A stretch of 64,000 nt of DNA from a virus. The translations under genes were made by a program, and so were the position numbers. The notes beneath the pieces were generated by a model. The model was not told where the DNA came from, made no database searches, and worked only from the letters and a program-made list of their open reading frames with translations. The stretch lies in the IMG/VR virus record IMGVR_UViG_3300031616_000001, positions 1 through 64,000 of that record; one strand, 5' to 3'. This document shows, piece after piece, positions 14,712 through 55,214 of this stretch (its first letter is position 1; each line of letters starts with the position of its first letter).

Positions 14712-14786
14712 TGGCGGGCCCCGAGAGATTCGAACTCCCGTCGCACGGTTTTGGAGACCGGCATCGTTCCGCTAGACCAGAGGCCC
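14712..14786 (-). tRNA. tRNA-Trp(CCA)
   Basis: Cloverleaf; anticodon loop CTCCAAA; GTTCGAAT T-loop; encoded CCA end. Confidence 0.9.
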
Positions 14787-14794
14787 CAATGAAG

Positions 14795-14871
14795 TGGTAG
14801 CGAGCATTCGATTCGAACGAATGACCTACGGGTTATCTGCCCGGCGCTCTAACCGACTGAGCTAGCCCGCT
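14795..14871 (-). tRNA. tRNA-Ile(GAT) with non-canonical A33
   Basis: TAGCTCAGTCGGTTAGAGC D-arm; stem CCGGG/CCCGT with loop CAGATAA; TTCGAAT; CCA end. Confidence 0.8.
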
Positions 14872-14880
14872 GCGCTGTAC

Positions 14881-14956
14881 TGGCAAGGGCGGCACGATTC
14901 GAACGTGCGACACGCGGGATCAAAACCCGCTGCTCTACCAACTGAGCTACGCCCCA
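14881..14956 (-). tRNA. tRNA-Gln(TTG)
   Basis: Anticodon arm GCGGG-TTTTGAT-CCCGC; TTCGAAT; GCCA end; U1:U72 mismatch. Confidence 0.85.
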
Positions 14957-15066
14957 GAAGATTCACTGTCGCCAGGTGACGACGATCTGAATTCGGGCGG
15001 TCAGGTGGGAGCGGGTCATGATGCGCGCAATTATGCAGCAAGTTTGCAGCGAGGTAAGTGCACTGC

Positions 15067-15143
15067 TGGTGCGCCCGCAGGGATTCGAACCCCGAACCTA
15101 CCGCCTAGAAAACGGCTGCTCTGATCCGTTGAGCTACGGGCGC
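15067..15143 (-). tRNA. tRNA-Arg(TCT)
   Basis: GCGCCCG acceptor stem; arm GCCGT-TTTCTAG-GCGGT; GGTTCGAATCC; CCA end. Confidence 0.9.
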
Positions 15144-15148
15144 ATGTG

Positions 15149-15223
15149 TGGTGCCGCGTCGAGGAATCGGACCCCGGACCAACGAGTTACAAGGACGCTG
15201 CTCTACCACTGAGCTAACGCGGC
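15149..15223 (-). tRNA. tRNA-Thr(TGT), atypical or possibly degenerate
   Basis: Loop CTTGTAA, but the anticodon stem GCGTC/CTCGT has two mismatches and the T-loop reads GTCCGAT instead of GTTCGA. Confidence 0.65.
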
Positions 15224-15230
15224 GAGATGG

Positions 15231-15306
15231 TGGCTGGCAAGACAGGGCTCGAACCTGTGACCAATCCCTTAACAGGGGAACGCTCTACCGACTGAGCTAC
15301 ATGCCA
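15231..15306 (-). tRNA. tRNA-Asn(GTT)
   Basis: Arm TTCCC-CTGTTAA-GGGAT; GGTTCGAGCC; GCCA end. Confidence 0.9.
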
Positions 15307-16975: not shown

Positions 16976-17168
16976 ATTCACACGTTTCTCACATGCGGTC
17001 CCGCGGCTCCACGTGGAACACAGGGGCAAAGCGACGAAGTTGGATTCGGGGTTCGAAACCCTCACCGCCCACCATCAAATTGCCCCGCCTTACCGGGCGT
17101 CAGACGCAAAACAGCCGTCAGCGACCCGTCCCAAACCCGGCTACGAATTCACATCTTTCTCACATGCG
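16976..17168. other. attP: attP: tRNA 3'-end core (17049-17074) flanked by arm-type direct repeats
   Basis: GGGTTCGAAACCCTCACCGCCCACCA (T-arm, acceptor strand, CCA); 22-bp repeats ATTCACAcgTTTCTCACATGCG (16976-16997) and ATTCACAtcTTTCTCACATGCG (17147-17168); adjacent to the integrase 3' end. Confidence 0.8.
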
Positions 17169-18337
17169 ACCGTAGTCCAGAGCCGAGATCCTCCGTATCG
17201 CCGGGCCGGCCGGTCGAATCCGAGCTTCTCGCCTTCGCTGATCCAGCGCCCGTACGTGCGGGTCACCATCTCGATGTTCTTGTGGCCCAGCAGGTTCGAG
17301 ATGTGGGCCGGGTTCTCGCCCTGGCTCAGCAGGTTCGAAGCAAATGTGTGCCGCAGCTGGTACGGGCTCCGGTACGCGATTCCCGTGCCCTTGTGCGCCT
17401 TTCGCCAGACCTCGGCCAGGCGCCTGTCGTCCCAAGCGCCGTCGTCGCGCGTGCCACGCGGGTTCACTGAGACGCGGTCGCCGGCGAGCAGCGTGTGCGC
17501 GCGCAAGAGATCGATGGCCTCGCGCGCCGCCGGCAGCAGAAGGATCGTGCGCACGCCCGCCGGGGTCTTCGGCCGCGCCTTGTCTTCGCCCGCTGTCGTC
17601 GTCTCCTGGATGTGGATGGTGCTCGCCTCGAGGTCGACGCGCGTCCATCGCAGGCCGATCAGCTCGCCGGTTCGCAGGCCGGTATAGGCCCACAGTTGGA
17701 AGGCGAAGCGCTCGGGCTCGGCGACGTTGGAAAGAAGCTTGACCACCTCCGACTCGCCATAGGGCTGCGCGTCGTAGCCCGTCGACCGCTGTGCCACGGG
17801 GAGCAAGGGCGCGATCTTCAGGCCGAGCAGCGGGTTGCCTTTGATGATCTCGTCGCCGACGGCCTCGTTCAGGACGGCGCGCAGCGGCAGCAACAGGTTG
17901 TTGATCCGCTTCAGGCTGCAGGTCTGCTTGTTGACCCAATCGCGGATGTCGCTTCGCTTCAGTTCGGTGATGCGCTTGTGGCCGAAGGCTGGCACCAGGA
18001 CATTGTCGATCGCCGTCTTGGTCCCGGCGAACGTCGACGGCTCGAACGTCCGCTTGACGCGGTCACGGTAGGCCTCGAGCAAGTCCTTGAGCAGCGCCGT
18101 CTTGCCGACGCCGTGCCCGAAGACGGCGGCGCGCTTTGACATCGGGAATTCCCTGGCGTAGTCGAACTGGGTCTTTTCGATCATCGTGAGGATTGCCGCG
18201 CGCCGGCGCTCGCACCACGCTTCGTTCGCCTTGCTGTGCTCGAGGTCGACCACCTCGCGGCACTGCACGCCCATGAAGCTGAAGGCGATCTGGTAGATCT
18301 GCTTCGTCTTGCGCGTGATCGGCGTGACTCCAATCAC
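17141..18337 (-). CDS. int: Tyrosine integrase with N-terminal arm-binding domain
   Basis: YTGLRTGE (R), PKT (K), YQLRHTFAS, LLGHKN..MV.RTY catalytic motifs; GTG start overlaps the xis stop. Confidence 0.95.
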   Translation of the reverse strand: MIGVTPITRKTKQIYQIAFSFMGVQCREVVDLEHSKANEAWCERRRAAILTMIEKTQFDYAREFPMSKRAAVFGHGVGKTALLKDLLEAYRDRVKRTFEPSTFAGTKTAIDNVLVPAFGHKRITELKRSDIRDWVNKQTCSLKRINNLLLPLRAVLNEAVGDEIIKGNPLLGLKIAPLLPVAQRSTGYDAQPYGESEVVKLLSNVAEPERFAFQLWAYTGLRTGELIGLRWTRVDLEASTIHIQETTTAGEDKARPKTPAGVRTILLLPAAREAIDLLRAHTLLAGDRVSVNPRGTRDDGAWDDRRLAEVWRKAHKGTGIAYRSPYQLRHTFASNLLSQGENPAHISNLLGHKNIEMVTRTYGRWISEGEKLGFDRPARRYGGSRLWTTVACEKDVNS

Positions 18338-18543
18338 TTTCCGTTTCCGTGCTGGAGCGTTGGCTTTACCCCCGCCGCCCAGTCGTCCACCGCTCGTTCG
18401 TTGATCCATAGATCCTTGGCGCCTTCCGGCTTTCTGGCATGCACGCCCTTCAACCAGTACCCGCGGCGGAGACGCGAGTCGACGGCCTCGGCCGTCTCGC
18501 CGGTGCGTCGCAGGTACTCTGGCAAAGGGACCCAATCAGCCAT
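18334..18543 (-). CDS. xis: Excisionase
   Basis: 69 aa directly upstream of int; WVPLPEY...GET.EAV..R...G.W..GVH...LWIN...VDDW. Confidence 0.8.
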   Translation of the reverse strand: MADWVPLPEYLRRTGETAEAVDSRLRRGYWLKGVHARKPEGAKDLWINERAVDDWAAGVKPTLQHGNGK

Positions 18544-37431: not shown

Positions 37432-39549
37432 TCAGGCGTCCACGTCGTCGAAGACACTGCGCGTGCCGTCGGCGTTCATGAGGGTGCCGTCCTCGGCATA
37501 GAACTGGCCACCCGTCAGCGGAACAGCGCGCAGCGCTGACTTGAGCGCGGCCATCTCATCGTGCGGCACGATCCATGGCCCCGGCTTGCCGGCTCGCGGC
37601 TTCAGGGCTGCCGACTTCATGACGGCGGCGACCGCGGCCAGCAAGGTTCCCGCCGTCTCCAGGTACTTCTTCATGTCGTAGAAGACCTCTGGCGGCGCAT
37701 CAGCAGCGTGCAGCTCGCCGGTCTGCCGCAGATAGCCGATGTACCCCTCATCTGAAGTGATCGAGATCGCCTGCAGCTGATAGTCGCCGAAGTACCTCTT
37801 GCTGGGGACCGATCCTGGCTCGCCGGCATAGCCAAGCGCTTGGAATCCAAGAGAGAAAACGAAGTCTGGCGTCGGTGGCAAAGCCGACGTGCGGATCTCG
37901 AGCCAGCCGACAGGCTTGTTCTGATCGAAGCCGATCAGGATGGGCACGCGCGTGGTGTCCTCGTTGAGTACGACGGGCAGCGTGCCGTCGCCGGGGCCGC
38001 CGGGCAGCGCGTCGGCGGCATCGGTCAGCGCGCCGTGAACCGTTTGGTCGCTGCCCGTCGCCATGTCGACACCGATGACAATCGTCTCACCCTGGTGCAA
38101 TACGTCAGCCATTTCGGCCGGCACGTATCCGCTCGGCGTATCGGCCAGCGCCAGCGCGGCCTTGACGTCGGCCACCTGCTCAACCAGCGGCGGCGCATCG
38201 CGGCTCGCGACCAGCTCGGCCAGGTAGCTGCGCAGGCTGACCAGCGTCGCGTCCTTCACGGCCTGCGCCGAGCCCACGAGGATCCCGAAGTTGGCGTCGT
38301 CGATTAGCCAGGCCTCGGTCTCTGCGATGATCTTCTCGACGTCGTCGACGTTGGCACCGGTGTAGTAGGGGATGCGGCCGACGTGGGCGATGACCAGCTG
38401 CTGGCGAATGCCGTCGATCTGCTGCATGGCCATTTGCGTGCGCTCGGCTGCCGCGGCTTGCTCGTCGCGAAGGCGCCGGGTTTCGGCGTCGGCGGTCTTC
38501 TGGTCGGTCTCGCGCTGCAGGACGACCCTGTGGAAGTCGTGGAGCTCATGCAGCGCCTTGTCGCGCGCCTTGACAGCCACGGCCGCGAACTCGCCGAGCT
38601 CATCGCCGACGGCAACGTGTTCGATCAACGTGACCAGCTCCAGCAGGCCGGCGGCCGACGACGTGAAGGCTCGGCGCTGGATGCGGTCGATCTCGGCCAC
38701 CAGTTCGCTTGCGGCGTCGCTGCGCGCGCGGCGATCGTCGGCGGCCCGCTGCTCGGCTGCGCGCTGCGCGTCGGCGACCCGACGCTGCTCGACGTCGGCG
38801 GCCTCGCGCTGCCGGCGCTCCTCGGCCTCGCGGGTGATGCGCTCGGCGTTCTCGCGCTCGAGTTGCGCGAGGCGCAGGCGGTTCGCTTCGGCCTCGGCTT
38901 CACGCTGCTCGGAAGACTTTGCAATGCTAAGTAAATCGGCCAACTTCAGGAGCGTCTCGGCCTTTGCGTTGACGGCGTGCGGCTCGAACTCTTCGAAGTC
39001 CGCGCCGACGACGATGCGCGCAACCATGTCGATGCGCTCCTGGATCTGCGCCGACGTCATGCCTACCGCGCGCACGGCGACGTTGGTGATGTCGGCGATG
39101 CGATCGCGGTGGCCGGCCTGGCGTTCGGCCTCGGCGGCGTCGCGCTCTGCCTTCTCACGCACCCTGCGCTGCTCGTCTGCGGTGATCTGCTGGTCGGCCG
39201 AGTTGTAGATCTCCTCGGTGATGCCGACGAATCGTTCGGCCTCGCTCTCCAGCCTGATGATCTTCTCGGCGACGCTGGCCTTCAATTCACGCTTTTTGTC
39301 GGCACAGCGCTTCTCGATGGTCGTCATCGTGCGCTTGAGCATCTGCCGATCCTTGCGGGCGCGGTCGTTGCCTTTGATCGTCGTCAAGTCGTAGGCGATG
39401 CCCTTGAGCTTGAGCATCTCGTTCAGGCCGTGGATGAGGTCCTTGTATTCCTCGAGCTCTGTCGAGACAAGTGCGACCTCGGTGCCCGGCGTTTTGTCGT
39501 CGACGACATCAGGGCCTGCCGTGCCCGCGGATTCTTCATTTTCGCTCAT
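37432..39549 (-). CDS. Long coiled-coil phage protein (DUF1351-like N-terminus)
   Basis: YDLTTIKG...ARKDR..L motif; E/R/A-rich coiled coil; near the recombination genes. Confidence 0.6.
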   Translation of the reverse strand: MSENEESAGTAGPDVVDDKTPGTEVALVSTELEEYKDLIHGLNEMLKLKGIAYDLTTIKGNDRARKDRQMLKRTMTTIEKRCADKKRELKASVAEKIIRLESEAERFVGITEEIYNSADQQITADEQRRVREKAERDAAEAERQAGHRDRIADITNVAVRAVGMTSAQIQERIDMVARIVVGADFEEFEPHAVNAKAETLLKLADLLSIAKSSEQREAEAEANRLRLAQLERENAERITREAEERRQREAADVEQRRVADAQRAAEQRAADDRRARSDAASELVAEIDRIQRRAFTSSAAGLLELVTLIEHVAVGDELGEFAAVAVKARDKALHELHDFHRVVLQRETDQKTADAETRRLRDEQAAAAERTQMAMQQIDGIRQQLVIAHVGRIPYYTGANVDDVEKIIAETEAWLIDDANFGILVGSAQAVKDATLVSLRSYLAELVASRDAPPLVEQVADVKAALALADTPSGYVPAEMADVLHQGETIVIGVDMATGSDQTVHGALTDAADALPGGPGDGTLPVVLNEDTTRVPILIGFDQNKPVGWLEIRTSALPPTPDFVFSLGFQALGYAGEPGSVPSKRYFGDYQLQAISITSDEGYIGYLRQTGELHAADAPPEVFYDMKKYLETAGTLLAAVAAVMKSAALKPRAGKPGPWIVPHDEMAALKSALRAVPLTGGQFYAEDGTLMNADGTRSVFDDVDA

Positions 39550-39565
39550 GGTCACTCCGTTTGAA

Positions 39566-39802
39566 TCAAAGGTCTTGGTCGCGAGCGACGCGCATGCTCT
39601 GCCGATCGCGAGCCACGTCAGCCGCGCAATCCCTGTAGAGCAACTCGCTGCACGGCTTCGGATTCATGTTCTCGTAGCACCAGCACAGGTACTGCGGGTC
39701 CTTCTCGCCGATCTGTGATGGTGTGAGGCCGGGATACTTCCGGCTGCGCGCCATCGGCGCGTGGTCGAGGTCTTCGGCGACTGTCATTTCTAGTTCCATC
39801 AA
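39566..39802 (-). CDS. Small protein with an ExoX-C/DUF3820-like motif
   Basis: KYPG.....I...DPQYL.W. Confidence 0.5.
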   Translation of the reverse strand: MMELEMTVAEDLDHAPMARSRKYPGLTPSQIGEKDPQYLCWCYENMNPKPCSELLYRDCAADVARDRQSMRVARDQDL

Positions 39803-40284
39803 GAGGTAGGGATCTCGCGCTGCAGGCTGACCTGCTGCTTTGGCTTTGGCGGCTCGATCTCTTTCATCATGGCGGAAGCCTGTGAGAGAACGGCTGCACC
39901 AAGACGCATGACGTGCAACTGCTTGCTCTGCTCAATTTGCGTGAGCGTCTCGGCACGTACCATCGTCACACGCCGGATGCTCTTGCCTTGCTTGCGCGTG
40001 CCCTGCTTGAATCCCTTGATGTTCGTGTCCAGTCGCTCGACGCCAGTGAGCGCGCGAAAGCCGATCGTCGGAATTGCCGCGATCTCGATGTTGTGGCTGT
40101 TCAACATCTCTTTTCGCCAGGCGAGCGTGACGCACCGATAGCGGTTCGACTTCGGACTGAGCCCGATCACCGCCTCGATCTGCTCGTGCGTGAAGTCGGT
40201 GCCTTCTGCGATCTCTGGGAACGCAGTGCGCAGCTTCTTGACATCAGGGGCTGTTGGAACGCCCCCAAGAAACAACTTGCTCAT
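39799..40284 (-). CDS. Basic, possibly winged-helix protein; candidate accessory gene of the Cas7-like locus
   Basis: AAGGA RBS directly after repeat unit 4; FTHEQIEAVIG...GFRAL. Confidence 0.6.
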   Translation of the reverse strand: MSKLFLGGVPTAPDVKKLRTAFPEIAEGTDFTHEQIEAVIGLSPKSNRYRCVTLAWRKEMLNSHNIEIAAIPTIGFRALTGVERLDTNIKGFKQGTRKQGKSIRRVTMVRAETLTQIEQSKQLHVMRLGAAVLSQASAMMKEIEPPKPKQQVSLQREIPTS

Positions 40285-40300
40285 CTCGATTCCTTTCAAC

Positions 40301-40371
40301 TATGCGCGTAGCGCCCGTGCCCCGGCTTGCTCTGCAACGCCCGGCCACGCCTTGCCAGACCACAACAAGAC
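40301..40371 (-). repeat. (GGY-NN)n pentamer unit 4 plus terminal hairpin
   Basis: GTCTT GTTGT GGTCT GGCAA GGCGT GGCCG GGCGT TGCAG AGCAA GCCGG GGCAC GGGCG, then hairpin GCGC-TAC-GCGC. Confidence 0.85.
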
Positions 40372-40375
40372 GGGA

Positions 40376-41038
40376 TTAGATCTCTTGAACCTCTGCGGTG
40401 AACATCCCGAACGAGCCCGGCGTCGTGCTGCCAGGTCGCCAATCGCAGAGCCCCTTATATTCGCCGGAGAAGCTCACGATCTCCTGGAGAACTCGCTTAG
40501 TGATCTGCTTGTCCCAGACGCTGATCGTTCCGGTCGCTGACCATCGATCGAAGCGGGGACGAACGCGAATGTGTTTGCTCTTGCCGATCTTGGCGCGCTT
40601 CACGAACAGGCTGAAGCCCATCGCAGCACATGCCACCTTGTGCTCGGCGAAATCTTGGACCTTCATCAGGTCTGCAATCGGCGCCCATAGCAGCGGCTGA
40701 CCGTCGATCAGAAGCGGCCAGTGCATGTCATCGACACGCATGCCACTCTGGGTCTGAGCTTTGAAAGTCTTGTTGCCGCGTCCGCCTGGCACGGGGACCA
40801 TGGCGCCGCCTTCCATCAGGCACCGCATCAGGTTGTCGACCGGAACAGTCACGAACTGTTCATCCTGGTAGCAGCTGCCGAGCCAACGCCACGCCGGTGT
40901 TCTGTCATCGCCAGCCTTGCTCGACTTTTGATTGGCGGCATCATCCTTCCATGCCGACATCCTGTCCGCCCAGTCGATATCATCAGAGTGCATCAGTAGC
41001 GGCGTCTTGCCTGTGATGGTCACTGAGAATTTCTTCAT
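40376..41038 (-). CDS. Solitary Cas7/RAMP-like RNA-binding protein
   Basis: RAMP hallmarks: N-terminal strand FSVTITGKTPLLMH, VPVDNLMRCL (equivalent to iPgsslKG), HIRVRPRF..W, and C-terminal Gly-rich loop GEYKGLCDWRPGSTTPGSFGMF; AGGAGG RBS. Confidence 0.7.
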   Translation of the reverse strand: MKKFSVTITGKTPLLMHSDDIDWADRMSAWKDDAANQKSSKAGDDRTPAWRWLGSCYQDEQFVTVPVDNLMRCLMEGGAMVPVPGGRGNKTFKAQTQSGMRVDDMHWPLLIDGQPLLWAPIADLMKVQDFAEHKVACAAMGFSLFVKRAKIGKSKHIRVRPRFDRWSATGTISVWDKQITKRVLQEIVSFSGEYKGLCDWRPGSTTPGSFGMFTAEVQEI

Positions 41039-41060
41039 CGCTTCCTCCTAGAGTTGATCA

Positions 41061-41380
41061 ATGCGCATTGCGCCCTTGCCACACCACACCTTGCCCGGCC
41101 GTGCCCAGCCCGGGCGAGCCATGCCAAGCCTTGGCTGGAGTGGTGCATTCGCACCGGCAACCATCGCACGCGACGGAAGCCGCTGTGAACAGCCCTTGCC
41201 AAGCCTGACCGCGCCGCGCCCCGCCGTGCCGAGGCTTGCCATGCCATGTCAGGCCACGCCGCGCTAGTGCAACCGCACCGGGATAACGGCAGAACCGCCA
41301 ACCCGCTGCGTTCGCAGCCCCTGCCAGGCCGAGCCGTGCCTTGCACTGCCACGGCGTGCCATGCCGCGCCACACCGAGTG
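41061..41380 (-). repeat. Array of three (GGY-NN)n pentamer units separated by hairpins; candidate guide ncRNAs
   Basis: Phased 5-nt repeats at 41316-41375, 41191-41265 and 41071-41135, each ending GGCA(A/G)GGGC followed by a hairpin. Confidence 0.9.
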
Positions 41381-41396
41381 GCATCATGGAAGTAGT

Positions 41397-41945
41397 TCAA
41401 TGCGGGCTCCTGTGACGCGGCTTGGCCATATACCGAGCGCCTTCGCGCTCGCTCGGCTCGAACTCGAATGTCACGCCGTACTGCACGATCGCGTCGTCGA
41501 TGATCTGATCGGTCCAGATCGCGTACTTCTTCGGGCCCAGCGATTCGCTCGAGACATAGACCTTGTGCGGCGTGCGCTTCTTCGCCACGCGCCGCACGCC
41601 GGTCTTCTTGTCGACCACCTCGCCGCGGCGCATTTCCCAATGGAAGAGAAAGCGTTCGTTGTAGACGAGCTTCCACTGGTCGACGGGCCAGAGTTCAGTT
41701 TTTCCGGTCAGCTGACCCTTGCTGTCGAAGAGCGGAATGCGCACCTGATCGCTGATCTGCTTCAGCACGGCGCCGTGCAGAAACTTGCGCTGCTTGATCG
41801 TGATCGGATCCAGCGCCGGGCCCACCCGCAGCTCTACCTGTTCGCCGTTGTCGAGGAGGCATCGCGCATGAGTCATCGCAGCAATGAACTTCTCACGCGC
41901 TCCGGCTTCGGTCGCGATCACCACGAGGTAGATCTCGTCGTTCAT
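41397..41945 (-). CDS. NinB-like recombination protein
   Basis: TIKQRKFLHG.VL..IS.QV...WK......FL...SSESL...Y..W.DQI...A...GV.F. Confidence 0.6.
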   Translation of the reverse strand: MNDEIYLVVIATEAGAREKFIAAMTHARCLLDNGEQVELRVGPALDPITIKQRKFLHGAVLKQISDQVRIPLFDSKGQLTGKTELWPVDQWKLVYNERFLFHWEMRRGEVVDKKTGVRRVAKKRTPHKVYVSSESLGPKKYAIWTDQIIDDAIVQYGVTFEFEPSEREGARYMAKPRHRSPH

Positions 41946-42235
41946 TCGGCCAGCCTCCGCAGCACGTCGGCCAGCAGATCGAACTCACTGCCGACACCCA
42001 AGGCAAGCATGAGCGGTGGCTTTGCCAGATGCACGGACGCGCGCGTCCCGTTGTGATGCATCTCGCACAGCGGAATGGTGAGGAAGTCGTCGCGCGCAAT
42101 CCGGCCCTCGCGGATGTGGTGTACCTGTGCCCCCGCGTGGCCGTAGCCGAGGCGATGGCAAACGATGCATCCGATTTCAGCGACGCGACCCATGTGGCGC
42201 GAGGCTGCGGCGGTGGCGGCGATCTTGCGGCGCAT
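41942..42235 (-). CDS. Ref/DUF968-like HNH-type nuclease
   Basis: HMGRVAEIGCIVC...QVHHIR...TIPLCEMHH. Confidence 0.75.
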   Translation of the reverse strand: MRRKIAATAAASRHMGRVAEIGCIVCHRLGYGHAGAQVHHIREGRIARDDFLTIPLCEMHHNGTRASVHLAKPPLMLALGVGSEFDLLADVLRRLAE

Positions 42236-42236
42236 C

Positions 42237-43136
42237 TCAGGCCTCTACGCCGAACTTCTTCGCCGCGGCGATGCGCAGTGCGGCGCGATCGTCTTCAGGC
42301 ATGTGAGCGATGCCATCGAGCAGCAGGTCGACCTCGGCCTGGTTGCGGGCCGTCGTGATGCGCTTGAAGAGGCGTTCGAACTCCGTGGGCTTCACGGCGG
42401 ACGGCGCGAACGCTGCGCGAACCGTAAGCGGCGCCGGCAGCGTGCGCCTTGCGATCTTCTGCAGCTTGGCGGGCATGTCTTCGACGGCCGCGAAGGGCGC
42501 GCGCAGGATGCGCTCGTACTCGTCGACCATGGCCTTGAACTCCATGAGATCGCTCTCGAGCTTTTCGATGAAGTCGTCGTCGCGGTAGATCCGCTTGCGC
42601 CAGAGTTGCTTGCCGGCTGGCGCCAGGGCAGGGCAGTACAGGCAGAAGTCCATCCACTGCCGACGGCTGATCCACAGGCCGCCCTGCACTTGATCGATGA
42701 CCATTGACGTGTCGCCGGTCGTCCAGATCTTGCGAAGCTTCAGCGGTGCCAGGAAGCACTTGTACTCAGCAGATCCATCGTCTTCGATGACACCGTCGAG
42801 GCTGCCGCCGAAGACCTCGTCGTCGGTCATGATGAAGCCGACGCGCTGCACGAACAGACCGATGTCGATCTCGTGCTCGTGCCGCGCGTCAGGCTCGAGC
42901 TCATGCCCGCGAGTCATGTACCACGTCTCGTAGTTCTCATCGAGCGGCTCGCCGCTGATGCGCTCGATGGCAATGCGGAACGCTTCGTCCTTGGCATCGC
43001 TGCTGTACTCACCGGCTTCATCACCACGCTTCAGCCGGGCGGACTCGCGCATCAGATGGAAGTTGGAGCACGTCAGCTTGCCGACGCGCGCCTGCTTCCA
43101 TGGCTTGCTGCCCTGCTCGCAGAGAACTTCTTTCAC
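42237..43136 (-). CDS. YqaJ/lambda-exonuclease family recombination nuclease
   Basis: QGSKPW..AR.G.LT.S, G..LEP.AR, GSLDG, EYKC, QVQGGLW motifs. Confidence 0.9.
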   Translation of the reverse strand: MKEVLCEQGSKPWKQARVGKLTCSNFHLMRESARLKRGDEAGEYSSDAKDEAFRIAIERISGEPLDENYETWYMTRGHELEPDARHEHEIDIGLFVQRVGFIMTDDEVFGGSLDGVIEDDGSAEYKCFLAPLKLRKIWTTGDTSMVIDQVQGGLWISRRQWMDFCLYCPALAPAGKQLWRKRIYRDDDFIEKLESDLMEFKAMVDEYERILRAPFAAVEDMPAKLQKIARRTLPAPLTVRAAFAPSAVKPTEFERLFKRITTARNQAEVDLLLDGIAHMPEDDRAALRIAAAKKFGVEA

Positions 43137-44296
43137 TTGGCCGCGCCCTTGCCTTCAGCCGCCTTGATGTCGCGCACGAAGTCGTCGTCGACTTCGCCTG
43201 TGCCGGGATCGGCGGCCTGCGCAGCCGTCTGAGGCGGCGGTGCATCGGCGGTGGTAGCGGCGGCCGGCGCAGGTGCGGACGCCGGAGCGTTGTCGACGGT
43301 GCGCTCGCGGTCGACGGCGACGGCCTTGTCCTTCAGGCGCTGGTGCTCACCGGCGAGCAGCCGGCGATTCTCTTGGCCGGTGCCGGCGAAGAACTTCTGA
43401 TAGGCGGCGACGCCCTTGTCAGCAGCGGTCTCGGCTGCCTTCAGGAGCGCATCGGGAATCTTCGGTCCGACGTCGTCGACCGGGCCCATGTCGCGCGGCG
43501 CGTTCATCTCCTGCAGGTCGTCGACCGTGTGCACGCCGAGCATGCACTGCGGCGCGTACATGCGCTGCCAGAGCTTCTGCGCGAGATAGAAGATCTGCTG
43601 CTGCGGGTTGGTCGTCCACAGCGTCGAGTTGCGCGTCAGCGCCTGCGCCATCAGCACCTCGAGGTACCGCGGCTCCTTCTCACCGGTGAGCGTCGTCCAC
43701 ACCTTGATGCCGAGGCCGACCTCGTCGGCGGGCTTCCAACCGGGCACCTTGTACTTCGCCGGATGGCCGTGATCGTCCTGCTTCTTCTTGCTCTCGCGCT
43801 CTTCGAAGCGGCCGTTGATCTTCGTCCAGTCGCCGAAGTATTCGATGTGCAGCGCCTCCTTGATGGCGCCCATGTTCTTCATCACGGCGCCGATGACCTG
43901 CGACTCGTAGCCGAGCTTGCCATTGATCATGTGCGTCTTCTCCGCGAGGCCGTAGAAGTCCAGGCCCCATCGGTCGGCGCGCATGGCGATCGCCGTGCAG
44001 TCGGCGGCGTTGCCCTTCAGGTGTGCCGGCAGCGTGGCATTGCCCTTCGACACGAACGAGCCGAAGTCCATGTAGGCCTTCATGGCGGCGGCGTTCGTGA
44101 TCTGCGAGAGGCCGAGGCTGGAGTTCTCGGTCATCGCGACGAGCGCCTGCTCGACGCGGGCCATCAGCCGCACGCCATCCGCGGTTGTCGCCAGCTCCGT
44201 CGACGAGCGCAGGTCGCGCAGCAGTTCGGGGATGCCGCCGGCGCTCGGCGCGATGGTCGCGGTGCTGATCTCGGTGCTCGTGTCTTGCGTCGTCAT
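43133..44296 (-). CDS. recT: RecT-family single-strand annealing protein
   Basis: LPAHLKG..ADC.AI.M.A.RW.LD....A.KTH.INGKLGYE.Q...RNSTLW...P.QQ..YLA...W.R.YAP..MLGV. Confidence 0.85.
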   Translation of the reverse strand: MTTQDTSTEISTATIAPSAGGIPELLRDLRSSTELATTADGVRLMARVEQALVAMTENSSLGLSQITNAAAMKAYMDFGSFVSKGNATLPAHLKGNAADCTAIAMRADRWGLDFYGLAEKTHMINGKLGYESQVIGAVMKNMGAIKEALHIEYFGDWTKINGRFEERESKKKQDDHGHPAKYKVPGWKPADEVGLGIKVWTTLTGEKEPRYLEVLMAQALTRNSTLWTTNPQQQIFYLAQKLWQRMYAPQCMLGVHTVDDLQEMNAPRDMGPVDDVGPKIPDALLKAAETAADKGVAAYQKFFAGTGQENRRLLAGEHQRLKDKAVAVDRERTVDNAPASAPAPAAATTADAPPPQTAAQAADPGTGEVDDDFVRDIKAAEGKGAAK

Positions 44297-44327
44297 GTCG
44301 GTCTTTCTTCGGCGTTCGCCGTGGTGG

Positions 44328-46811
44328 TCAGATCTTCTCGAGGAGGGCGAGCTCGACGCGCAGCTCGGCCGCGCGCTTCTCGTGGTGCTTGATGCGCTGC
44401 GGCAGACCATCGAATTCGGCCTTGAGGTGCGCGGTGTCGGACTCGGCGCTGGCGATCAGCTTGCGCACGTAGATGGCCTTGAACCAGGCGACGGTCTTCG
44501 CGGCGCCGAGACGGATCAGGTCGCCGGCGACGAGGTGCGGCGCCGAGCGCGTTGGGGTCAAGACGGCGCTCATTGCGATCTCCCTGTTGCTTCGAGAAGC
44601 ACCGCGCGCATCTCCGTTTCCATCGCCAGGTCATCGCGGCGGTCGCCGCCGAGCGACTTGAAGTCGGGCTGATGCAGGCGCACCAGCGCGGCGACGGCGG
44701 CCCAGTGACAGGAGAAGGCGCCGATCACCTGCGGCTGCCGCATGTTGTTCGCGAGGATCACGCGCTTGCCCGACACGTAGGGCTGCGCTTCGCTGACGCC
44801 GCCGGGCTTCACGCGGTTTGCCTCGCCGTTCTGATGCGCGCGTCGCGGTTGGCGCAGATCACCATGTCGGACGCTTGACCGATCGTGGCGTCGATGGCCT
44901 GGCGGCGGCGCTCGGCATTGGCCTGAGCGGTCTTCAGGCCTTCGGCGCTTCGCGCGCCTGCCAGGTCGGCCTGACGCAGGCGTGATTCCTCGGCGCCCCA
45001 GGCCAGCATCGCGTCGGCGTCCATGTCGCGGTACATCACAGCCGAGACTCGTCCGCGGTGATGCAACGCGCGTCTGGGTCGTGTTGCGTGAAGAGTCCGC
45101 CGTCGACCACGATGACCGCTGCCGACGTCGGCGACTGAGGCGCGAAGGCCGCGCGGGCCGCACGCCTCAAGGCTTCGCAATGCTGATCCTGCGCGCTGGA
45201 ATCGGGGTCGCAGCACCCGCGCCCGTTGGGCATGGGCGTCGAAGAGCGGATGGCGTCGTCGGCGACGAACTGGATGAGGTTGTCCAGCGCGTCCTCGAAG
45301 GCTTCCTCGTGCGGGTTGACTGCCGGCGCCGGCGCGACGGGCAGACCACGTATATCGGCAGGTGTGTGCTGTGCTGTCATGACGTGGTCCCGGTTGCTTT
45401 GGCGATTGCGGCGCGAGCGGCCATCAAGCGCAAACGATCCTCATGGCGCTCCTGCTGCGTGGTGGGCGCACCAGCGCGGCAGTAGGCTTCGTCTAAACCC
45501 TGCAGCGCAGCCAGCAAATCAGGCGCGCCGGCTGCATCAAGTGCGGATTGCGCATCAGCGAGGTGCTCTTGCCCGTAGACCTTCCACGCGTCGTCGAAGT
45601 CAACGTTGCACTCATCTGCGGCTCGCTTGCACAAGGCTCGCGCTGCGGCGACAACCATCGGCGTGTGCTGCGCGTTCATGCGGCGCGCCCGGTAGCCGCG
45701 ACGATGTCAGCAGCCGTGAGCCGCCGGCATTGCCCGATGTGTCGCGGCGGACCCATGGAGTCGCCGTGGCCAGCCCAGCCCCAATACATGCAGGCGTTCG
45801 GGTTGATCTCGGCGATCTGCCGGCGCAGCGCGTTGACTTGCGCGACGCGCCCCAACTCGCTGCGAAGATTCGGCCACTCGGTGATGGCGTTGATCTTGCG
45901 CCAGGTCTCGGCAAACGAGCCGCCGCGGCAGACCGCGAGCAGTTCGCGCTGCAGGTCGTCAACGGTGCGCGGCACCGGCGGTTGCTCCGCGCTCACAGCC
46001 CGAACCCCAGCTTCCAGCAGGCTGACGCCGCCGCGGCGACGCCGATCGCGGCGATCCACATCCACGGGAACCAGGTCGGATCAGGCTCGGCCACGCGCGC
46101 CGGCGCCGGCCGCGATGCCGTGGCGCCGATGTGATGCACGACGGCCGTGTGGAACTCGACGAGCGGCGGCAGCGGCGTGCCGGGCACGGCCGGCCGCAAG
46201 ACGAGGCGTGCGCCGGCCTTCACGACAGATCTCCGCGCTTGACGAAGAGCACGAGCGCCGCGGCCGCCGCGATGCCACCGTTCCAGGCGCTGCCCACGGA
46301 CAGCGCCGCGACGAGGTTGCCGGCGCCGAGCGCGCCGAGCCAGATCCGGTAGGTCATGACTGCTCCTCGAAGTCGAGAGGGATGTCGCAGACGTCCTGTG
46401 TTTCCGCAGCTGGCGGCTCGCGCAGCACCAGCGCCAGCTCGGCGCGCACGCGGTCCTTTGCCACGGACTTGCGGAAGCTCTGGCTCACCGCGATGAGCCG
46501 CACCTGCGCGCCGGGATACAGAAAGGTGGGGGCGACGGTCACGACGCCGCCGGCTTGTTGCCTGCCGCCGGCGCAACGACATGCACCTGGTAGTCCGTGG
46601 GGGCGATGGAATTCCAGACGGCGAAGTCAGGATCCAGACGCTGCTGGGCTTCGCGCAGCGCCGCGCGTTCGGCGCGTCCCGCGCGGACGACGCGCATGTC
46701 TTCGCTGTAGTCGAAGGCCCAGTCGTGCGCCGTGAGTGCGGCGACGTAGGCCGCCTGCTGTTCATCGCTGACGGCCTGCCCGACGGGTACGCCCGGTGTG
46801 GTGTCTGTCAT
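44328..46811 (-). other. First pL-operon genes: about ten small hypothetical ORFs
   Basis: Mostly overlapping minus-strand ORFs 44328-44573, 44570-44812, 44809-45036, 45036-45380, 45377-45679, 45676-45996, 45993-46223, 46220-46357, 46354-46542, 46539-46811. Confidence 0.55.
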
Positions 46812-48894: not shown

Positions 48895-49234
48895 TGTGGC
48901 CGGGGCGATCTGGCAAGCATTGCTTCCAGATTTCTGACTGAGCCTATTCACAAACAACCTCCGTTCCTCATTGGTGAAACCGATGTTGACAAGGATACCC
49001 GGTGACATTAGCAATGCAAAGCACTGAATTTGGGGGGTGTGCTGGGCACGCGCATTGCATCGGCCAGATCGCATCTGCGGTCAGCAGGCCGGCGGCCGAC
49101 CGGTTGCACGAGGGGAAACCCCCTTCGGAGAAGGTCGCCAGGCCGCGCCGCGCGCGCGTACGGTTTACCGATTCGCGGCTCCGCGCTGTTACAAAAAACT
49201 TTGCGTTGCTGAAGTCCATCGGCGGTGGCCGTCG

Positions 49235-51010
49235 ATGATCGAGCCGCAGTTCATCCTCGCGCGGGCCGCCAAACTCGTCATCGATCTGTTCGCCGGCGGC
49301 GGCGGAGCCAGCACTGGCATTGAGCAGGCCATTGGCCGCCACGTCGACATCGCGATCAATCACGACCGCGTCGCCGTCGCCCAGCACCAGGCAAACCACC
49401 CGCAGACCCGTCACCTGGTCACCGACATCTGGGAGGTGGACCCGCTCAGGACCACCGAGGGTCGGCCCGTCGGGTTGCTGTGGGCGAGTCCGGACTGCCG
49501 TCACTTCAGTCCAGCCAAGGGCGGCGCGCCGGTCAGCGATCGCGTGCGCAGCCTAGCGTGGGTGGTGATCAAGTGGGCGACGCATTGCCGGCCCGATGTG
49601 ATCTGCCTCGAGAACATCCCCGAGTTCAAGAACTGGGGGCCGGTCATCGCCGGCCGGCCGTGCCCGGACCGCAAAGGCAAGACCTTCCGCCGCTGGCGCC
49701 TGCAGCTCGCGCGTCTCGGCTACGTCGTCGAGTTCCGCGAACTCCGCGCCTGCGACTACGACACGCCGACGATCCGCAAGCGGCTCTTCATGGTGGCGCG
49801 CTGCGACGGCCTGCCGATCGTCTGGCCGGAGGCGACGAACGGCCCCGGCCTGCGGCCGTTTCGCACGGCCGCCGAGTGCATCGACTTCAGCCTGCCGTGC
49901 CCGAGCATCTTCGAGCGCAAGAAGCCGCTGGCGGCGGCGACGCAGCGGCGCATCGCGCACGGCGTGAAGCGCTACGTCATCGACAATGCGAAGCCGTTCA
50001 TCGTGCCCGTGACGCACCCGCGCGACTCGCGCGTGCACAGTGTCGACGACCCGATGCGCACCGTCACCGCGGCGCCGCGCGGCGAGTTCGCACTCGCGGC
50101 GCCGACGATCGCCCGCATCGGCCAGACCGGCGGCAATGGCAAGTACGCGAACAGCGTCGAGGAGCCGCTGTCAACCATCACCACGAAGGCCGAGCACCTG
50201 CTGGTCGCGCCGGTGATCGTTGAAGCCGCGCACGGCGATGTTTCGCCGACCGGCGTCAAGCGCTGGGGCAAGGGCCACCGCTCGATCGAGGAGCCGGTGC
50301 CGACGATCACGGCCAGCGGCGGCAACACCGCGGTGGTCGCGTCGTTCCTGGCCAAGCACTACGGTGGCCACGAGACGCCGGGCACGCCGCTCGACAAGCC
50401 GATCAGCACGATCACGACGCAGGACCATCACCACCTGGTGGCAGCGCACATCACGAAGTTCCGCACGGACAGCGACGGCGTCGCCGCCGACGTCCCGATG
50501 CCGACTGTCACCGCCAACAGCCATGTCAAGCGCCCGGGCGGCGCGCCGCCGCTTGGCCTCGTGACATCGCATCTCGCGAAGCTGCGCGGCACCAGCAACA
50601 GCGCGGCGACCGACGAGCCATTGCACACCATCAGCGCCGGCGGCTGGCATCACGCCGAAGTCCGCGCCTTCCTGGCGGCGTACTACGGCACCGACCAGGA
50701 TCCGCGGCTCGAGGAGCCGTTGCATACGCTGACGACACGCGACCGTTTCGGCCTCGTCACCGTCAGCGGTATCGACTACGTCATCGTCGACATCGGCATG
50801 CGCATGCTCCAACCTCGCGAGTTGTACCTGGCGCAGGGTTTCGCGCCCGACTACATCATCGACTGGGGCATCGACCCGAAGACCGGTGACCGCATCACGC
50901 TGACAAAGACCGCGCAGGTTCGCCTGGTCGGCAATAGCGTCTGCCCGCCGCTGGCGCGCGCCATCGTCGCCGCGAACTACTCCGACGTCGAGATGCGGAG
51001 GGCGGCTTGA
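49235..51010 (+). CDS. DNA (cytosine-5) methyltransferase
   Basis: DLFAGGGG (motif I), ASPDC (IV), LENI.EF (VI), TIRKRLF (VIII), RML.PREL..AQGF, GNSVCP; repeated P+.TIT target-recognition modules. Confidence 0.95.
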   Translation: MIEPQFILARAAKLVIDLFAGGGGASTGIEQAIGRHVDIAINHDRVAVAQHQANHPQTRHLVTDIWEVDPLRTTEGRPVGLLWASPDCRHFSPAKGGAPVSDRVRSLAWVVIKWATHCRPDVICLENIPEFKNWGPVIAGRPCPDRKGKTFRRWRLQLARLGYVVEFRELRACDYDTPTIRKRLFMVARCDGLPIVWPEATNGPGLRPFRTAAECIDFSLPCPSIFERKKPLAAATQRRIAHGVKRYVIDNAKPFIVPVTHPRDSRVHSVDDPMRTVTAAPRGEFALAAPTIARIGQTGGNGKYANSVEEPLSTITTKAEHLLVAPVIVEAAHGDVSPTGVKRWGKGHRSIEEPVPTITASGGNTAVVASFLAKHYGGHETPGTPLDKPISTITTQDHHHLVAAHITKFRTDSDGVAADVPMPTVTANSHVKRPGGAPPLGLVTSHLAKLRGTSNSAATDEPLHTISAGGWHHAEVRAFLAAYYGTDQDPRLEEPLHTLTTRDRFGLVTVSGIDYVIVDIGMRMLQPRELYLAQGFAPDYIIDWGIDPKTGDRITLTKTAQVRLVGNSVCPPLARAIVAANYSDVEMRRAA

Positions 51011-51940: not shown

Positions 51941-52599
51941 TCGATGCCTGCTCGTGGGACGCGCCAGGCCGGGACCGCTATACGGGGTCGGTGCCGGCGG
52001 CCATCATTGCCTTCGGCCTGCCGCTGGCCACCCAATCCAAGCTGATCGCGGCCTTCGAAGCCCGCGAGTTCGTCGACGCCGTCGTCATCGACCGCGATGC
52101 CATCCGCGGCCGCACCTTCGACTATGCACCGGAGATCTCCGCGATGCACTTCGGCAGCCGCGGGCGGATCTGCGGGACGGTGACGCGCACCGGCTGGAGC
52201 GCTGAGCACGTCGAGACGGCGCTGGTGCTGTGCGCCGACGGCGAGTGCATCGCCTGGCCGGCGGTGTGCGGCAACGTCTTCAGGCTCGCGCGGCGCGAGC
52301 GCGCCGAGAAGCTCGCCGGGCCGCCGGCCGCGGTCCCCGAGACGCCGGGCGATGCCGTGGCCCCGCCCGAGCCGCCTCCTGTTCTCACGCTGACGTCGGC
52401 GCCCGTGCCGCTGGCTGGGCCCGCATATCCGCCGTCGGGCTACGGCGGCCCGCCGGACATCTTCTTTGGGCCGTGCTGCGCGACGCCAGGGGCTCCCGGG
52501 CTTCCGCCGATCACTCCGGCCATCCCGGAGCCGTCGACCTGGGCGCTGTTGATCGCCGGCGGCGCGGCGTTCCTCCTGGCGAGGAGACGGCGGGCGTGA
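51937..52599 (+). CDS. MHFG-family PEP-CTERM protein
   Basis: CSWD.PG, AMHFG...C..V.R..W, P.VC.NV; C-terminal IPEPSTWALLIAGGAAFLLARRRR. Confidence 0.85.
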   Translation: MIDACSWDAPGRDRYTGSVPAAIIAFGLPLATQSKLIAAFEAREFVDAVVIDRDAIRGRTFDYAPEISAMHFGSRGRICGTVTRTGWSAEHVETALVLCADGECIAWPAVCGNVFRLARRERAEKLAGPPAAVPETPGDAVAPPEPPPVLTLTSAPVPLAGPAYPPSGYGGPPDIFFGPCCATPGAPGLPPITPAIPEPSTWALLIAGGAAFLLARRRRA

Positions 52600-55214
52600 A
52601 ATCGTACGAGCAGTTCCTTCGCGACAAGGTGCGCCTCGCCCCTGATGAGGGGTTCGACGTTGCCCTGGACGAGGTGAATCCGCTGCTGAAGATGCACCAG
52701 CGCCTTATGGTGGTCTGGGCAATCCGCGGCGGGCGGCGCGCGATCTTCGCGGCCTTCGGTCTCGGCAAGAGCGTCATCCAACTCGAGATCGTCCGCCTGA
52801 TCCTTGCGCGCATCACCGGCCTCGGCCTGATTGTGATCCCGCTGGGCGTCCTGCAGGAGTTCAAGCGCGACGCCGCCATGCTCGGCATCGTCGTCAAATT
52901 CATCCGCGACATCGAAGACGCGCACGGCGCCGACATCTACCTGACGAACTACGAGACCGTCCGCGACGGCAAACTCGACCCGCAGCGGTTCGCCGTGGCC
53001 AGCCTGGATGAGGCCGCCGTCCTGCGCGGCTTCGGCGGCACCAAGACATTCCGCGAGTTCATGCGCACGTTCGCCGGCGACGGCAAGACGTTGAACGACA
53101 GGACGATCACGGACGGCGTGCGGTATCGCTTCGTGGCGACGGCGTGCCCGAGCCCGAACGAGTACATCGAGTTGCTGGCGTACGCCGCCTACCTCGGCAT
53201 CATGGACGTGTCGGCGGCGAAGACCAGGTTCTTCAAGCGCGACAGCACGAAGGCCGACAAGCTGACGCTGCACGCGCACAAGGAGCGCGAGTTCTGGTTG
53301 TGGGTGTCGTCGTGGGCGATCTTCGTTCAGAAGCCGAGCGACCTCGGCTGCTCGGACGACGGCTACGAACTACCGCCAATGGACGTGCGCTGGCACGAGG
53401 TGGCCAGCGACGTCGCCACCATCGGCCACGAGCCCTGGGGCCAGGCCAAGATGTTCGTCAGCGCCGCCATTGGCGTCGTCGACGCCAGCCGCGAGAAGCG
53501 CGAGAGTCTGCCGCTTCGCATGGCCAAGATGATGGAACTGCGCGCGGAGGATCCGCATGCCCATCGCATCCTCTGGCACGACCTCGAGCGCGAGCGCGAC
53601 GCCATCGAGCGCGCCATCCCGACGGCGGTCAGCGTCTACGGTTCGCAGGACCTGGATGAACGCGAGCAGGCCGTCGTGGACTTCAGCGACGGCCGGTTCC
53701 AGGAGCTCGCCGCGAAGCCCGTGATCGCCGGCAGCGGCTGCAACTTTCAGCGGCACTGCAGCTGGGCAATCTTCCTCGGCATCGGCTTCAAGTTCAGCGA
53801 TTTCATCCAGGCGATTCACCGTATCCAGCGTTTCCTGCAGACGCGGCCGGTGCGCATCGACCTGATCTACACGGAAGCCGAGCGCGAGGTTCGCAGGCAG
53901 CTCGAGCGCAAATGGGAGCAGCACACCATCATGGTCGCCAAGATGACCGAGATCATTCGGGAGTTCGGACTCTCACAGGCCGCGATGGCGCAGTCGCTGA
54001 CGCGCGCCATGAACGTGGAACGCGTGGAAACCGCTGGTCGCAGCTACAAGCTCGTGAACAACGACAGCGTCGACGAGACGCGTCGCATGGCTACCGACAG
54101 CGTCGACCTGATCCTCACGTCGATTCCGTTCTCTTCGCAATACGAATACTCGCCGAGCTACCGCGACCTCGGTCACAGCGACAACAACAAGCACTTCTTC
54201 GAGCACATGGACTTCATCACGCCGAACCTGCTGCGCGTGCTGAAGCCCGGCCGCATCGCGGCGATCCACGTGAAGGATCGCATCGTGCCCAAGGGCATGA
54301 CCGGCCTCGGCTTTCAGACGGCCTACCGATTCCACAGCAAGGTTGCCGACCACTACGAGAAGCACGGCTTCGCCTACCTCGGCATGAAGACGATCGTCAC
54401 CGACGTCGTGCGCGAGAACAACCAGACCTATCGCCTGGGTTGGACGGAGCAGTGCAAGGACGGCACGAAGATGGGCGTCGGCATGCCCGAGTACCTGCTG
54501 CTGTTCCGCAAGCCCGTGACGGACACCGCCGACGGCTACGCCGATACGCCGGTGGTCAAAGCCAAGCCGCTGTGCCTCGACGGCGACGACGACGTGCCGT
54601 TTGACCGCGATCTTCCGATCAAGCCGAACAGCGGCTACTCGCGATCGCGGTGGCAGATCGATGCCCACGGCTTCACGCGGTCATCGGGTGACGGTCTGCT
54701 GCTGCCAGAGGACCTGGCCGGCATGACGCACGCCGAGATGTTCCAGCTGTTCAAACGGCGATCGCTCGAGACCGTCTACAACTTCGAGAACCACGTGCGA
54801 CTCTGCGAGCACCTCGAAGCCGCCGGCAAGCTGCCGGTGACCTTCATGTTGCTGCAGCCGCAGAGCTGGAGCGATGAGGTGTGGACCGACATCACGCGGA
54901 TGCTCACGCTCAACGGCGCGCAGTCCGCGAAGGGCAAGGAGATGCATCTTTGCCCGATGCAGTTCGATCTCGCCGATCGCGCGATCGAGCAATGGTCCAT
55001 GCCTGGCGAGGTGGTGTTCGATCCATTCGCCGGCCTCGGAACCGTCCCGTACCGCGCCGTCCAGAAGGGCCGCTTCGGCCTGGGCTGCGAACTGAGCCCG
55101 TCGTACTACCTCGACAGCCACACCTACTGCCGCGCGGCCGAGCTCGAGCTGAGCATGCCGAGCCTCTTCGATGCCGAAGAGATCGGCGAGACAGCCGACT
55201 CTGCCGCGTCTTGA
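52596..55214 (+). CDS. SNF2-like helicase fused to an N6/N4 DNA methyltransferase
   Basis: FGLGKS (Walker A), LDEA, TACPSPN, QAIHRIQRF; MTase SIPF, H.CPMQ, DPFAGLGT motifs. Confidence 0.9.
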   Translation: MKSYEQFLRDKVRLAPDEGFDVALDEVNPLLKMHQRLMVVWAIRGGRRAIFAAFGLGKSVIQLEIVRLILARITGLGLIVIPLGVLQEFKRDAAMLGIVVKFIRDIEDAHGADIYLTNYETVRDGKLDPQRFAVASLDEAAVLRGFGGTKTFREFMRTFAGDGKTLNDRTITDGVRYRFVATACPSPNEYIELLAYAAYLGIMDVSAAKTRFFKRDSTKADKLTLHAHKEREFWLWVSSWAIFVQKPSDLGCSDDGYELPPMDVRWHEVASDVATIGHEPWGQAKMFVSAAIGVVDASREKRESLPLRMAKMMELRAEDPHAHRILWHDLERERDAIERAIPTAVSVYGSQDLDEREQAVVDFSDGRFQELAAKPVIAGSGCNFQRHCSWAIFLGIGFKFSDFIQAIHRIQRFLQTRPVRIDLIYTEAEREVRRQLERKWEQHTIMVAKMTEIIREFGLSQAAMAQSLTRAMNVERVETAGRSYKLVNNDSVDETRRMATDSVDLILTSIPFSSQYEYSPSYRDLGHSDNNKHFFEHMDFITPNLLRVLKPGRIAAIHVKDRIVPKGMTGLGFQTAYRFHSKVADHYEKHGFAYLGMKTIVTDVVRENNQTYRLGWTEQCKDGTKMGVGMPEYLLLFRKPVTDTADGYADTPVVKAKPLCLDGDDDVPFDRDLPIKPNSGYSRSRWQIDAHGFTRSSGDGLLLPEDLAGMTHAEMFQLFKRRSLETVYNFENHVRLCEHLEAAGKLPVTFMLLQPQSWSDEVWTDITRMLTLNGAQSAKGKEMHLCPMQFDLADRAIEQWSMPGEVVFDPFAGLGTVPYRAVQKGRFGLGCELSPSYYLDSHTYCRAAELELSMPSLFDAEEIGETADSAAS

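Follow-up and report, generated by a model that had tools for sequence, protein, structure and literature searches.

What reads a series of repeated pentamers that lie on one strand around a small phage gene, and what might the variable bases of these pentamers specify? The question is raised by the virus record IMGVR_UViG_3300031616_000001 of the IMG/VR collection, a genome of 118,179 bp with terminal repeats, of which the first 64 kb (positions 1 to 64,000; hereafter the window) were analysed. On the minus strand of this window, four tracts of GGY-NN pentamers, each unit comprising a GGY triplet and two variable bases (NN), accompany a gene for a protein of 220 amino acids. The region 39799–41375 is very probably a VIPR (Viral Interference Programmable Repeat) locus of a 118-kb tailed phage of temperate type, and as such is a further example of an already described kind of system. 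It is ordered as three guide-RNA genes, the gene vipr, a fourth guide-RNA gene, and the gene vap.

VIPR was first described in 2026 as a CRISPR-related, RNA-guided DNA silencer (bioRxiv 10.64898/2026.04.26.720920). As described there, the system comprises Vipr, a RAMP protein carried by phages, together with the accessory gene vap and guide RNAs (vrRNAs) of 9–16 YNNGG repeats with a conserved tail. The NN bases pair with double-stranded DNA, with one target base, usually the wobble base of a codon, skipped per unit; satellites, prophages, and other phages serve as natural targets (10.64898/2026.04.26.720920). The preprint also reports frequent internal degeneracy of the vrRNAs, the absence of self-targeting among the systems treated there, and targets for about half of the guides, recovered only in the pangenomes of the right host. 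A second preprint describes cryo-electron microscopy structures in which guanines are held singly by the protein (10.64898/2026.04.26.720927), and a third reports satellite-encoded decoy guides and solo vrRNAs (10.64898/2026.10.15.759431).

The four tracts, U1–U4, can be read directly from the sequence; they all lie on the minus strand, span 40317–41375, and are confirmed by systematic scanning. Allowing up to two mismatches, the pattern (GGYNN)5GGY occurs 30 times in the window, on the minus strand in every case and within 40329–41375, whereas 100 dinucleotide-preserving shuffles give an expectation of 0.53 (standard deviation 0.88, largest value 5). A scan of the whole 118,179-bp genome returned 18 matches on the reverse strand and none on the forward strand, every one of them inside the 64-kb window; a second scan counted four arrays, and the entire genome holds no GGY-NN array beyond U1–U4, solo arrays included. 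The first three tracts fill the 358-bp gap between an open reading frame of 182 amino acids (41397–41945) and that of 220 amino acids (40376–41038). U1 (vrRNA1; 41321–41375, minus strand, as are all tracts and tails below) has 11 units with the NN string GT GC AT AC GT AG AA AC TC CT AG; U2 (vrRNA2; 41196–41260) has 13, reading GT CT AT AT AA TC AC GG GC GC CA TT AA; and U3 (vrRNA3; 41076–41130) has 11, reading TT AT TC CG TG AC CG AA GT GT AA. Each of these three contains one or two off-consensus units. U4 (vrRNA4; 40317–40361), located between vipr and vap, has nine units, three of them off GGY, with the string CT AA GT CG GT AG AA GG AC.

All four strings differ, as a preliminary description of the window had correctly read from the sequence. 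That description had also held the NN bases to be richer in A and T than the genome, and they are: G and C make up 48 of the 104 bases (46%) in the strings as first listed, and 39 of 88 (44%) in the core strings given above, compared to 64.7% in the genome. Compared with roughly 700 arrays of other loci, U1–U4 have at most four consecutive NN units in common with any of them, which is the level of chance; these guides are thus unique to this phage. The repeat tracts themselves fold no better than shuffled sequences (z −1.2 and −0.2), and a search of the whole window against Rfam at gathering thresholds returned the six tRNAs and no other RNA family.

Every tract ends alike. The last unit reads GGCA(A/G/C) and is followed by GGG, of which the third G opens a hairpin with a stem of 4–5 bp and a loop of 3–4 nucleotides (nt). 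The tail of vrRNA1 (41305–41320) comprises GG and a hairpin with a 5-bp stem and a 4-nt loop, with additional hairpins 3′ of it up to the next tract; that of vrRNA2 (41182–41195) has a 4-bp stem and a 4-nt loop after its GG, and those of vrRNA3 (41063–41075) and vrRNA4 (40304–40316) each have GG, a 4-bp stem, and a 3-nt loop. The vrRNA3 tail ends 24 nt 5′ of the vipr ATG, with an AGGAGG ribosome-binding site in between, and the vrRNA4 tail ends 19 nt 5′ of the vap ATG. This arrangement recurs across the Vipr clade to which the locus belongs: of 250 distinct tails, 170 begin with GGG, and a hairpin of at least 4 bp forms in 159 of these 170, compared to a mean of 21.6 and a maximum of 36 upon shuffling. 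Given this excess over the shuffles and the 30 different stem pairs among the clade hairpins, the tail stem covaries. A further hairpin element, in which CCGGTGC and GCACC enclose a 3-nt loop, precedes U2 and U3 (41265–41290 and 41135–41165, minus strand) and is also present 5′ of the arrays in related loci (L151–L166). It may act in 5′ processing or as a 5′ handle; alternatively, it may be where the tail of the preceding guide ends.

The common tract ending also amends the NN strings as they were first listed. Their final dinucleotides, CT, CT, CG, and CG, derive from GGGCT or GGGCG and mark the start of the 3′ tail hairpin, and the leading GC of U2, AA of U3, and TT GT of U4 come from units that lack GGY and are uncertain. 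Four to seven of the listed dinucleotides are therefore tail or non-GGY units, while the remainder of the strings stands as originally read.

The gene that adjoins the tracts, vipr (40376–41038, minus strand), encodes a 220-residue, Cas7-like RAMP protein, as judged from homology and from a structural model. BLASTP aligns residues 1–217 of the 220 with Vipr of Escherichia phage SUSP1 (E value 3e-19, 27% identity), and phiSUSP1 is among the matches listed by a tblastn search with the same protein. In the SUSP1 record, one GGT-NN tract precedes the gene of the Vipr homologue and three come after it, and all four end in GGG. The structural preprint assigns contacts with two guanines to H17, D177, R138, and W178 of SUSP1 Vipr, and places R179 in a pyrimidine pocket (10.64898/2026.04.26.720927). 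By pairwise alignment, H17, R138, D177, W178, and R179 of SUSP1 correspond to H17, R160, D199, W200, and R201 here, and across 49 aligned homologues none of the five varies. The residues concerned with the skipped base and the non-target strand are conserved less well and fall in a region of low model confidence: in the pairwise alignment K88 and R39 of SUSP1 are matched by K93 and K38, but K33 by D32 and K82 by M80.

The fold places the protein in the same company. Its AlphaFold model, with a predicted local distance difference test (pLDDT) score of 84, features a strand hairpin at residues 143–163 that carries R160. All 40 matches listed by Foldseek against the PDB are chains of CRISPR-Cas effector complexes (type VII, type III Csm, and Cas7-11/Craspase), 21 of them at E values of 0.001 or below and the best at about 1e-4. 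An aligner independent of Foldseek ranks Csm, Csm3, Cmr, and gRAMP chains first with Z scores of 8.3–7.2, a middling level at which two RNase P protein subunits also turn up. With the Cas7 family of Class 1 CRISPR-Cas systems (Csm3, Cmr4, type VII Cas7, and Cas7-11), the protein has in common an RRM core, a glycine-rich loop, and a thumb hairpin, and would share the periodic binding of a guide with flipped-out bases. The period, however, would be five nucleotides with two pairing bases, as opposed to six with five in Cas7, and the tracts are pentamer repeats: there is no repeat-spacer array in 38000–44000, where a tandem-repeat scan found short arrays only and no CRISPR-like repeats, and no cas gene recognised by PADLOC among the five neighbouring proteins. 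Nor is there a sequence-level link to Cas7 in the family libraries, as Pfam, NCBIfam, and PADLOC have no match for Vipr or for the vap product. The only family library with a match to the 220-residue protein is PHROGs (phrog_4652, function unknown).

Immediately downstream lies the candidate vipr-accessory gene, vap (39799–40284, minus strand), which encodes 161 amino acids from an ATG at 40284; the program that listed the open reading frames places the start at a TTG, 40299. By tblastn, a homologue of its product is found in 74 of 85 Vipr loci, and none is found for the neighbouring proteins of 182, 78, and 707 amino acids. Where the open reading frame of the homologue could be delimited, it lies on the vipr strand in 73 of 73 instances, mostly just downstream of vipr. 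A profile built for Vap aligns with SUSP1 vap1 over 88 columns in hhalign (93.8% probability, E value 1.8e-7). The Vap model (pLDDT 90) presents the helix-strand-helix-helix-strand-strand order of a winged helix followed by a long helical hairpin; its Foldseek matches are weak (best E value 7e-3) and consist mostly of winged-helix DNA-binding domains.

Whether arrays and protein belong together can be assessed across the family, in both directions. Starting from the protein, 68 of 71 viral loci with a Vipr homologue, most of which reach 10 kb to either side of vipr, carry GGY-NN arrays; of the 256 arrays in these loci, 255 are on the vipr strand and 254 within 1.5 kb of vipr, an association with vipr to which the present locus conforms. 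Starting from the repeats, the viral collection was scanned, blind to any protein, for runs of six perfect GGCNN units, which retrieved at least 139 loci, many of them holding several modules of 8–22 units with diverse NN. A match to the Vipr profile, which represents one Vipr clade only, is encoded in 56 of the 139 listed, and in 42 of the 68 that are 2.5 kb or longer. The clade comprises about 1,800 homologues at E values of 1e-3 or below. It occurs in soil and water metagenomes and in metagenome-assembled bacterial genomes of many phyla. The viral collection yielded no match to a scan with the single Vipr protein, though an alignment-based scan succeeded, and GenBank phages gave no DNA match.

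The arrays and homologues of this wider set vary in several ways. One viral contig (L022, 1461–2160) has a single in-phase run of 140 GGCNN units, the longest among the arrays printed, and in others (L015, L025, and L046) modules are joined by a 4-nt GGCA unit or parted by TCA; these unusual layouts may be the "staggered" arrays named in the first preprint (10.64898/2026.04.26.720920). Among close relatives, the vipr-proximal guide is identical (comparison of L155–L166 with L151–L154). In a sister group, just five consecutive NN units of this guide are common, after which it differs by whole units. Whole units thus seem to be gained or lost as guides evolve. Homologues of the Vipr clade with 40–64% identity also occur in metagenome-assembled genomes (L220–L233) labelled Rubrivivax, Steroidobacteraceae, Pseudorhodoferax, Vicinamibacterales, Nitrospira, Phycisphaerales, Saccharibacteria, and Planctomycetota, which is a very broad range of hosts.

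How would such a locus work? By homology with the published systems, and by analogy with those of SUSP1 and Pseudomonas fulva in particular, each tract would be transcribed into a vrRNA of roughly 70–120 nt. Vipr protomers would polymerise along this RNA, one per pentamer, each flipping out and holding its GGY, and the exposed NN bases would pair with double-stranded DNA while skipping every third base. The expected targets would be 26–38 bp long, of the form NNxNNx…, most often in codon register. Binding would repress transcription of a competing phage, satellite, or prophage, with assistance from the winged-helix Vap. The expression and processing of the vrRNAs, the skipping of one base at U1–U4, the repression, and the kind of target are all inferred here from homology to VIPR. 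The preliminary description had proposed that the NN bases carry the specificity and that skipping one target base per dinucleotide would impart a codon periodicity tolerant of wobble changes; this proposal agrees, by homology, with the published mechanism, which was demonstrated experimentally for VIPR systems, such that a reader with only the letters at hand recovered the guide code.

The closest known counterparts are the type II VIPR systems of SUSP1 and of a Pseudomonas fulva prophage. As described in the preprints, these share with the present locus a small Vipr RAMP with the same GG-contact residues, carriage by a phage, the absence of a self-target, a vap1-like partner directly downstream, vrRNA genes of 9–13 GGY-NN units on the same strand and on both sides of vipr, and GGG with a structured tail after every tract. 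The homology to vap1 suggests that the locus, too, is of type II. The two differ in that the Vipr proteins are only 27% identical, in that the triplet is GGC here and GGT in SUSP1, and in layout: here vipr follows three guides and is separated from vap by the fourth, whereas SUSP1 has one guide upstream and three after vap.

Several results count against a VIPR identity or limit it and have to be set beside this evidence. Three of the nine units of U4 are off consensus. The clade tail is a mini-hairpin of 13–16 nt, compared to a pseudoknot of about 40 nt in the SUSP1 clade. The similarity between Vap and SUSP1 vap1 exists at the profile level only, BLASTP of the vap product returning nothing. 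A scan of the minus strand across 39500–42300 found no sigma-70-like promoter; the vrRNAs may therefore be processed from an early transcript. With respect to base composition, among 180 clade guides a model of codon positions 1–2 outperforms the other phases (2–3, 3–1, and the phase average) by 204–552 log-likelihood units, yet does no better than a uniform model. The NN composition is accordingly compatible with wobble skipping, yet no evidence for it.

Also on this side of the balance is the search for targets, which yielded none for U1–U4 in the phage genome or in the viral, metagenome, and bacterial collections searched. The gapped search proposed in the preliminary description, with the strings tested at different skips against shuffled controls, was run in part and produced no matches above background at skips 0–3. 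A local database of 1.36 Mb, consisting of the phage genome and the fetched loci with arrays masked, and hence of VIPR neighbourhoods rather than likely targets, was queried with 442 distinct guides at skips 0–3 and five shuffles of each, with no excess of matches. At a skip of one, matches of at least 0.85 were obtained for 7 of the 442 real guides and 57 of 2,210 shuffled ones, and a lone 17/18 match is the number expected by chance. The viral and metagenome collections were searched with exact seeds of 8–9 units at one skip, and matches were judged by the remaining units. In the viral collection, the 8-unit seeds of U1–U4 gave 5, 7, 3, and 5 matches, respectively, all of which extend at chance level; a 9-unit seed of U2 gave 10 matches in the metagenome collection, again at the level of chance. 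With as many as three mismatches allowed, the complete U2 pattern was present in 0 of 401 genomes of one bacterial order, chosen for having the nearest chromosomal Vipr homologues. A positive control, namely the 8-unit seed of the SUSP1 upstream guide in the viral collection, drew 21 matches, the best at 20/24 and not above chance, and was thus not recovered. Because of this failed control, the negative target searches are weak and do not weigh against the code.

Two further observations bear on these searches. Within the phage genome itself, the best match comprises 62–78% of NN bases at skips 0–3, none reaching 80%, and falls within the range of 100 shuffles; the preliminary description had noted no self-match by eye, and the computation concurs. 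Separately, the U2 seed matches in the metagenome collection (L254–L263) repeatedly encode the same peptide, I/M-I/M-N/K-S-T-G-A-A-H/Q. Codon-periodic patterns therefore pick out conserved protein motifs, which constitutes a source of false targets.

The lack of targets, together with the off-consensus units, can also be read as decay. The proteins and some tracts would then be intact, while one or more guides, above all U4 with three of its nine units off GGY and to a lesser degree U1–U3 with one or two such units each, would have eroded and would no longer load or target; no target turned up for any guide in the searches made. We nevertheless consider this quite unlikely. Degeneracy is frequent among vrRNAs according to the first preprint (10.64898/2026.04.26.720920), and the downstream guides of SUSP1 are more degenerate than U1–U4. 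Moreover, vipr and vap are full-length open frames with the invariant residues kept, and U4 itself retains the GGG-hairpin tail.

Far less probable is a different kind of reader altogether. Sites of the trp RNA-binding attenuation protein (TRAP) consist of triplets repeated with 2-nt spacers in leader RNA. A TRAP-like protein reading GGC was the first working idea for this locus, and it was dropped once the adjoining gene proved to be a Vipr homologue. In such a scheme, GGC would be bound by a ring-shaped regulator, NN would serve as spacing only, and translation of the genes 3′ of U3 and U4 would be under its control. The resemblance to TRAP sites lies in the 5-nt period, in modules of 9–13 repeats, and in the position of U3 and U4, 19–24 nt before start codons; the tracts also fold no better than shuffles. 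However, the conserved gene next to them encodes a Cas7-like RAMP, homologous to a protein whose use of such RNAs as guides has been shown, and in the VIPR family the spacers and not the triplets carry the information. In addition, searches of Pfam, PHROGs, NCBIfam, and PADLOC gave no TRAP-family name to any neighbouring gene, U1 and U2 have no gene directly after them, and some arrays of the pattern-retrieved loci far exceed the size of a ring, the longest reaching 140 units. Least probable of all are G-quadruplex tracts (G2N3) with a structural role in DNA or RNA, for instance in pausing or R-loop formation: (GGCNN)n does fit a two-tetrad G2-N3 motif as judged from its letters, but the constant pyrimidine at the third position and the strict register are not features that a loop position would need, 68 of the 71 loci have arrays together with vipr, and the structures of the second preprint show guanines held singly by protein (10.64898/2026.04.26.720927).

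Within the VIPR identification, one extension of a different nature deserves mention, namely, that the GGC-type, hairpin-tailed clade might form a distinct VIPR subtype with its guides in the 5′ leaders of vipr and vap. We regard this as unlikely, with a somewhat better chance than decay. Were it true, the vrRNAs would be cut from an early messenger RNA and not made from promoters of their own, and Vipr, in loading onto the leader, would at the same time set how much vipr and vap are translated, coupling the supply of guides to that of protein. The lack of exact-seed matches among the large sets of viral and metagenome sequences could then mean that the targets are in the host or in unsampled elements, not in known phages.

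The VIPR locus has recombination genes as its neighbours. Upstream and on the same strand are genes for RecT (43133–44410), a YqaJ-type exonuclease (42237–43136), and a Ref-like nuclease (41942–42235); five neighbouring proteins have no match in PADLOC, its cas models included, or in NCBIfam. Elsewhere in the window are genes for tail proteins, an integrase, six tRNAs, DNA methyltransferases, and a helicase, and from this gene content the phage looks like a large temperate tailed phage. The six tRNA genes (14715–15306, minus strand) lie about 1.8 kb from the gene of a tyrosine-type integrase (17141–18535, minus strand; phrog_1, E value 1.9e-54). An integrase beside a tRNA cluster suggests a temperate lifestyle for this 118-kb phage. 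A large DNA methyltransferase (49037–51010, plus strand) and a helicase with methyltransferase-like parts (52230–55214, plus strand) are encoded 8–14 kb from the VIPR locus. A search for the host by way of the tail proteins, in the 401 bacterial genomes mentioned above, gave matches of at most 35% identity.

VIPR adds a recently described mode of DNA reading by RNA, and its essentials become clearer with each divergent member. In the present member, Vipr is only 27% identical to that of SUSP1, yet the five residues that contact the guanines, the GGG junction, and a vap1-like partner are all retained. With a mini-hairpin in place of the pseudoknot and with GGC triplets, it is a compact, natural case in which to ask what amount of tail and protein is required. 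The four guide strings that it provides are those of a temperate, root-associated phage, and their targets would show which elements such phages fight in soil communities.

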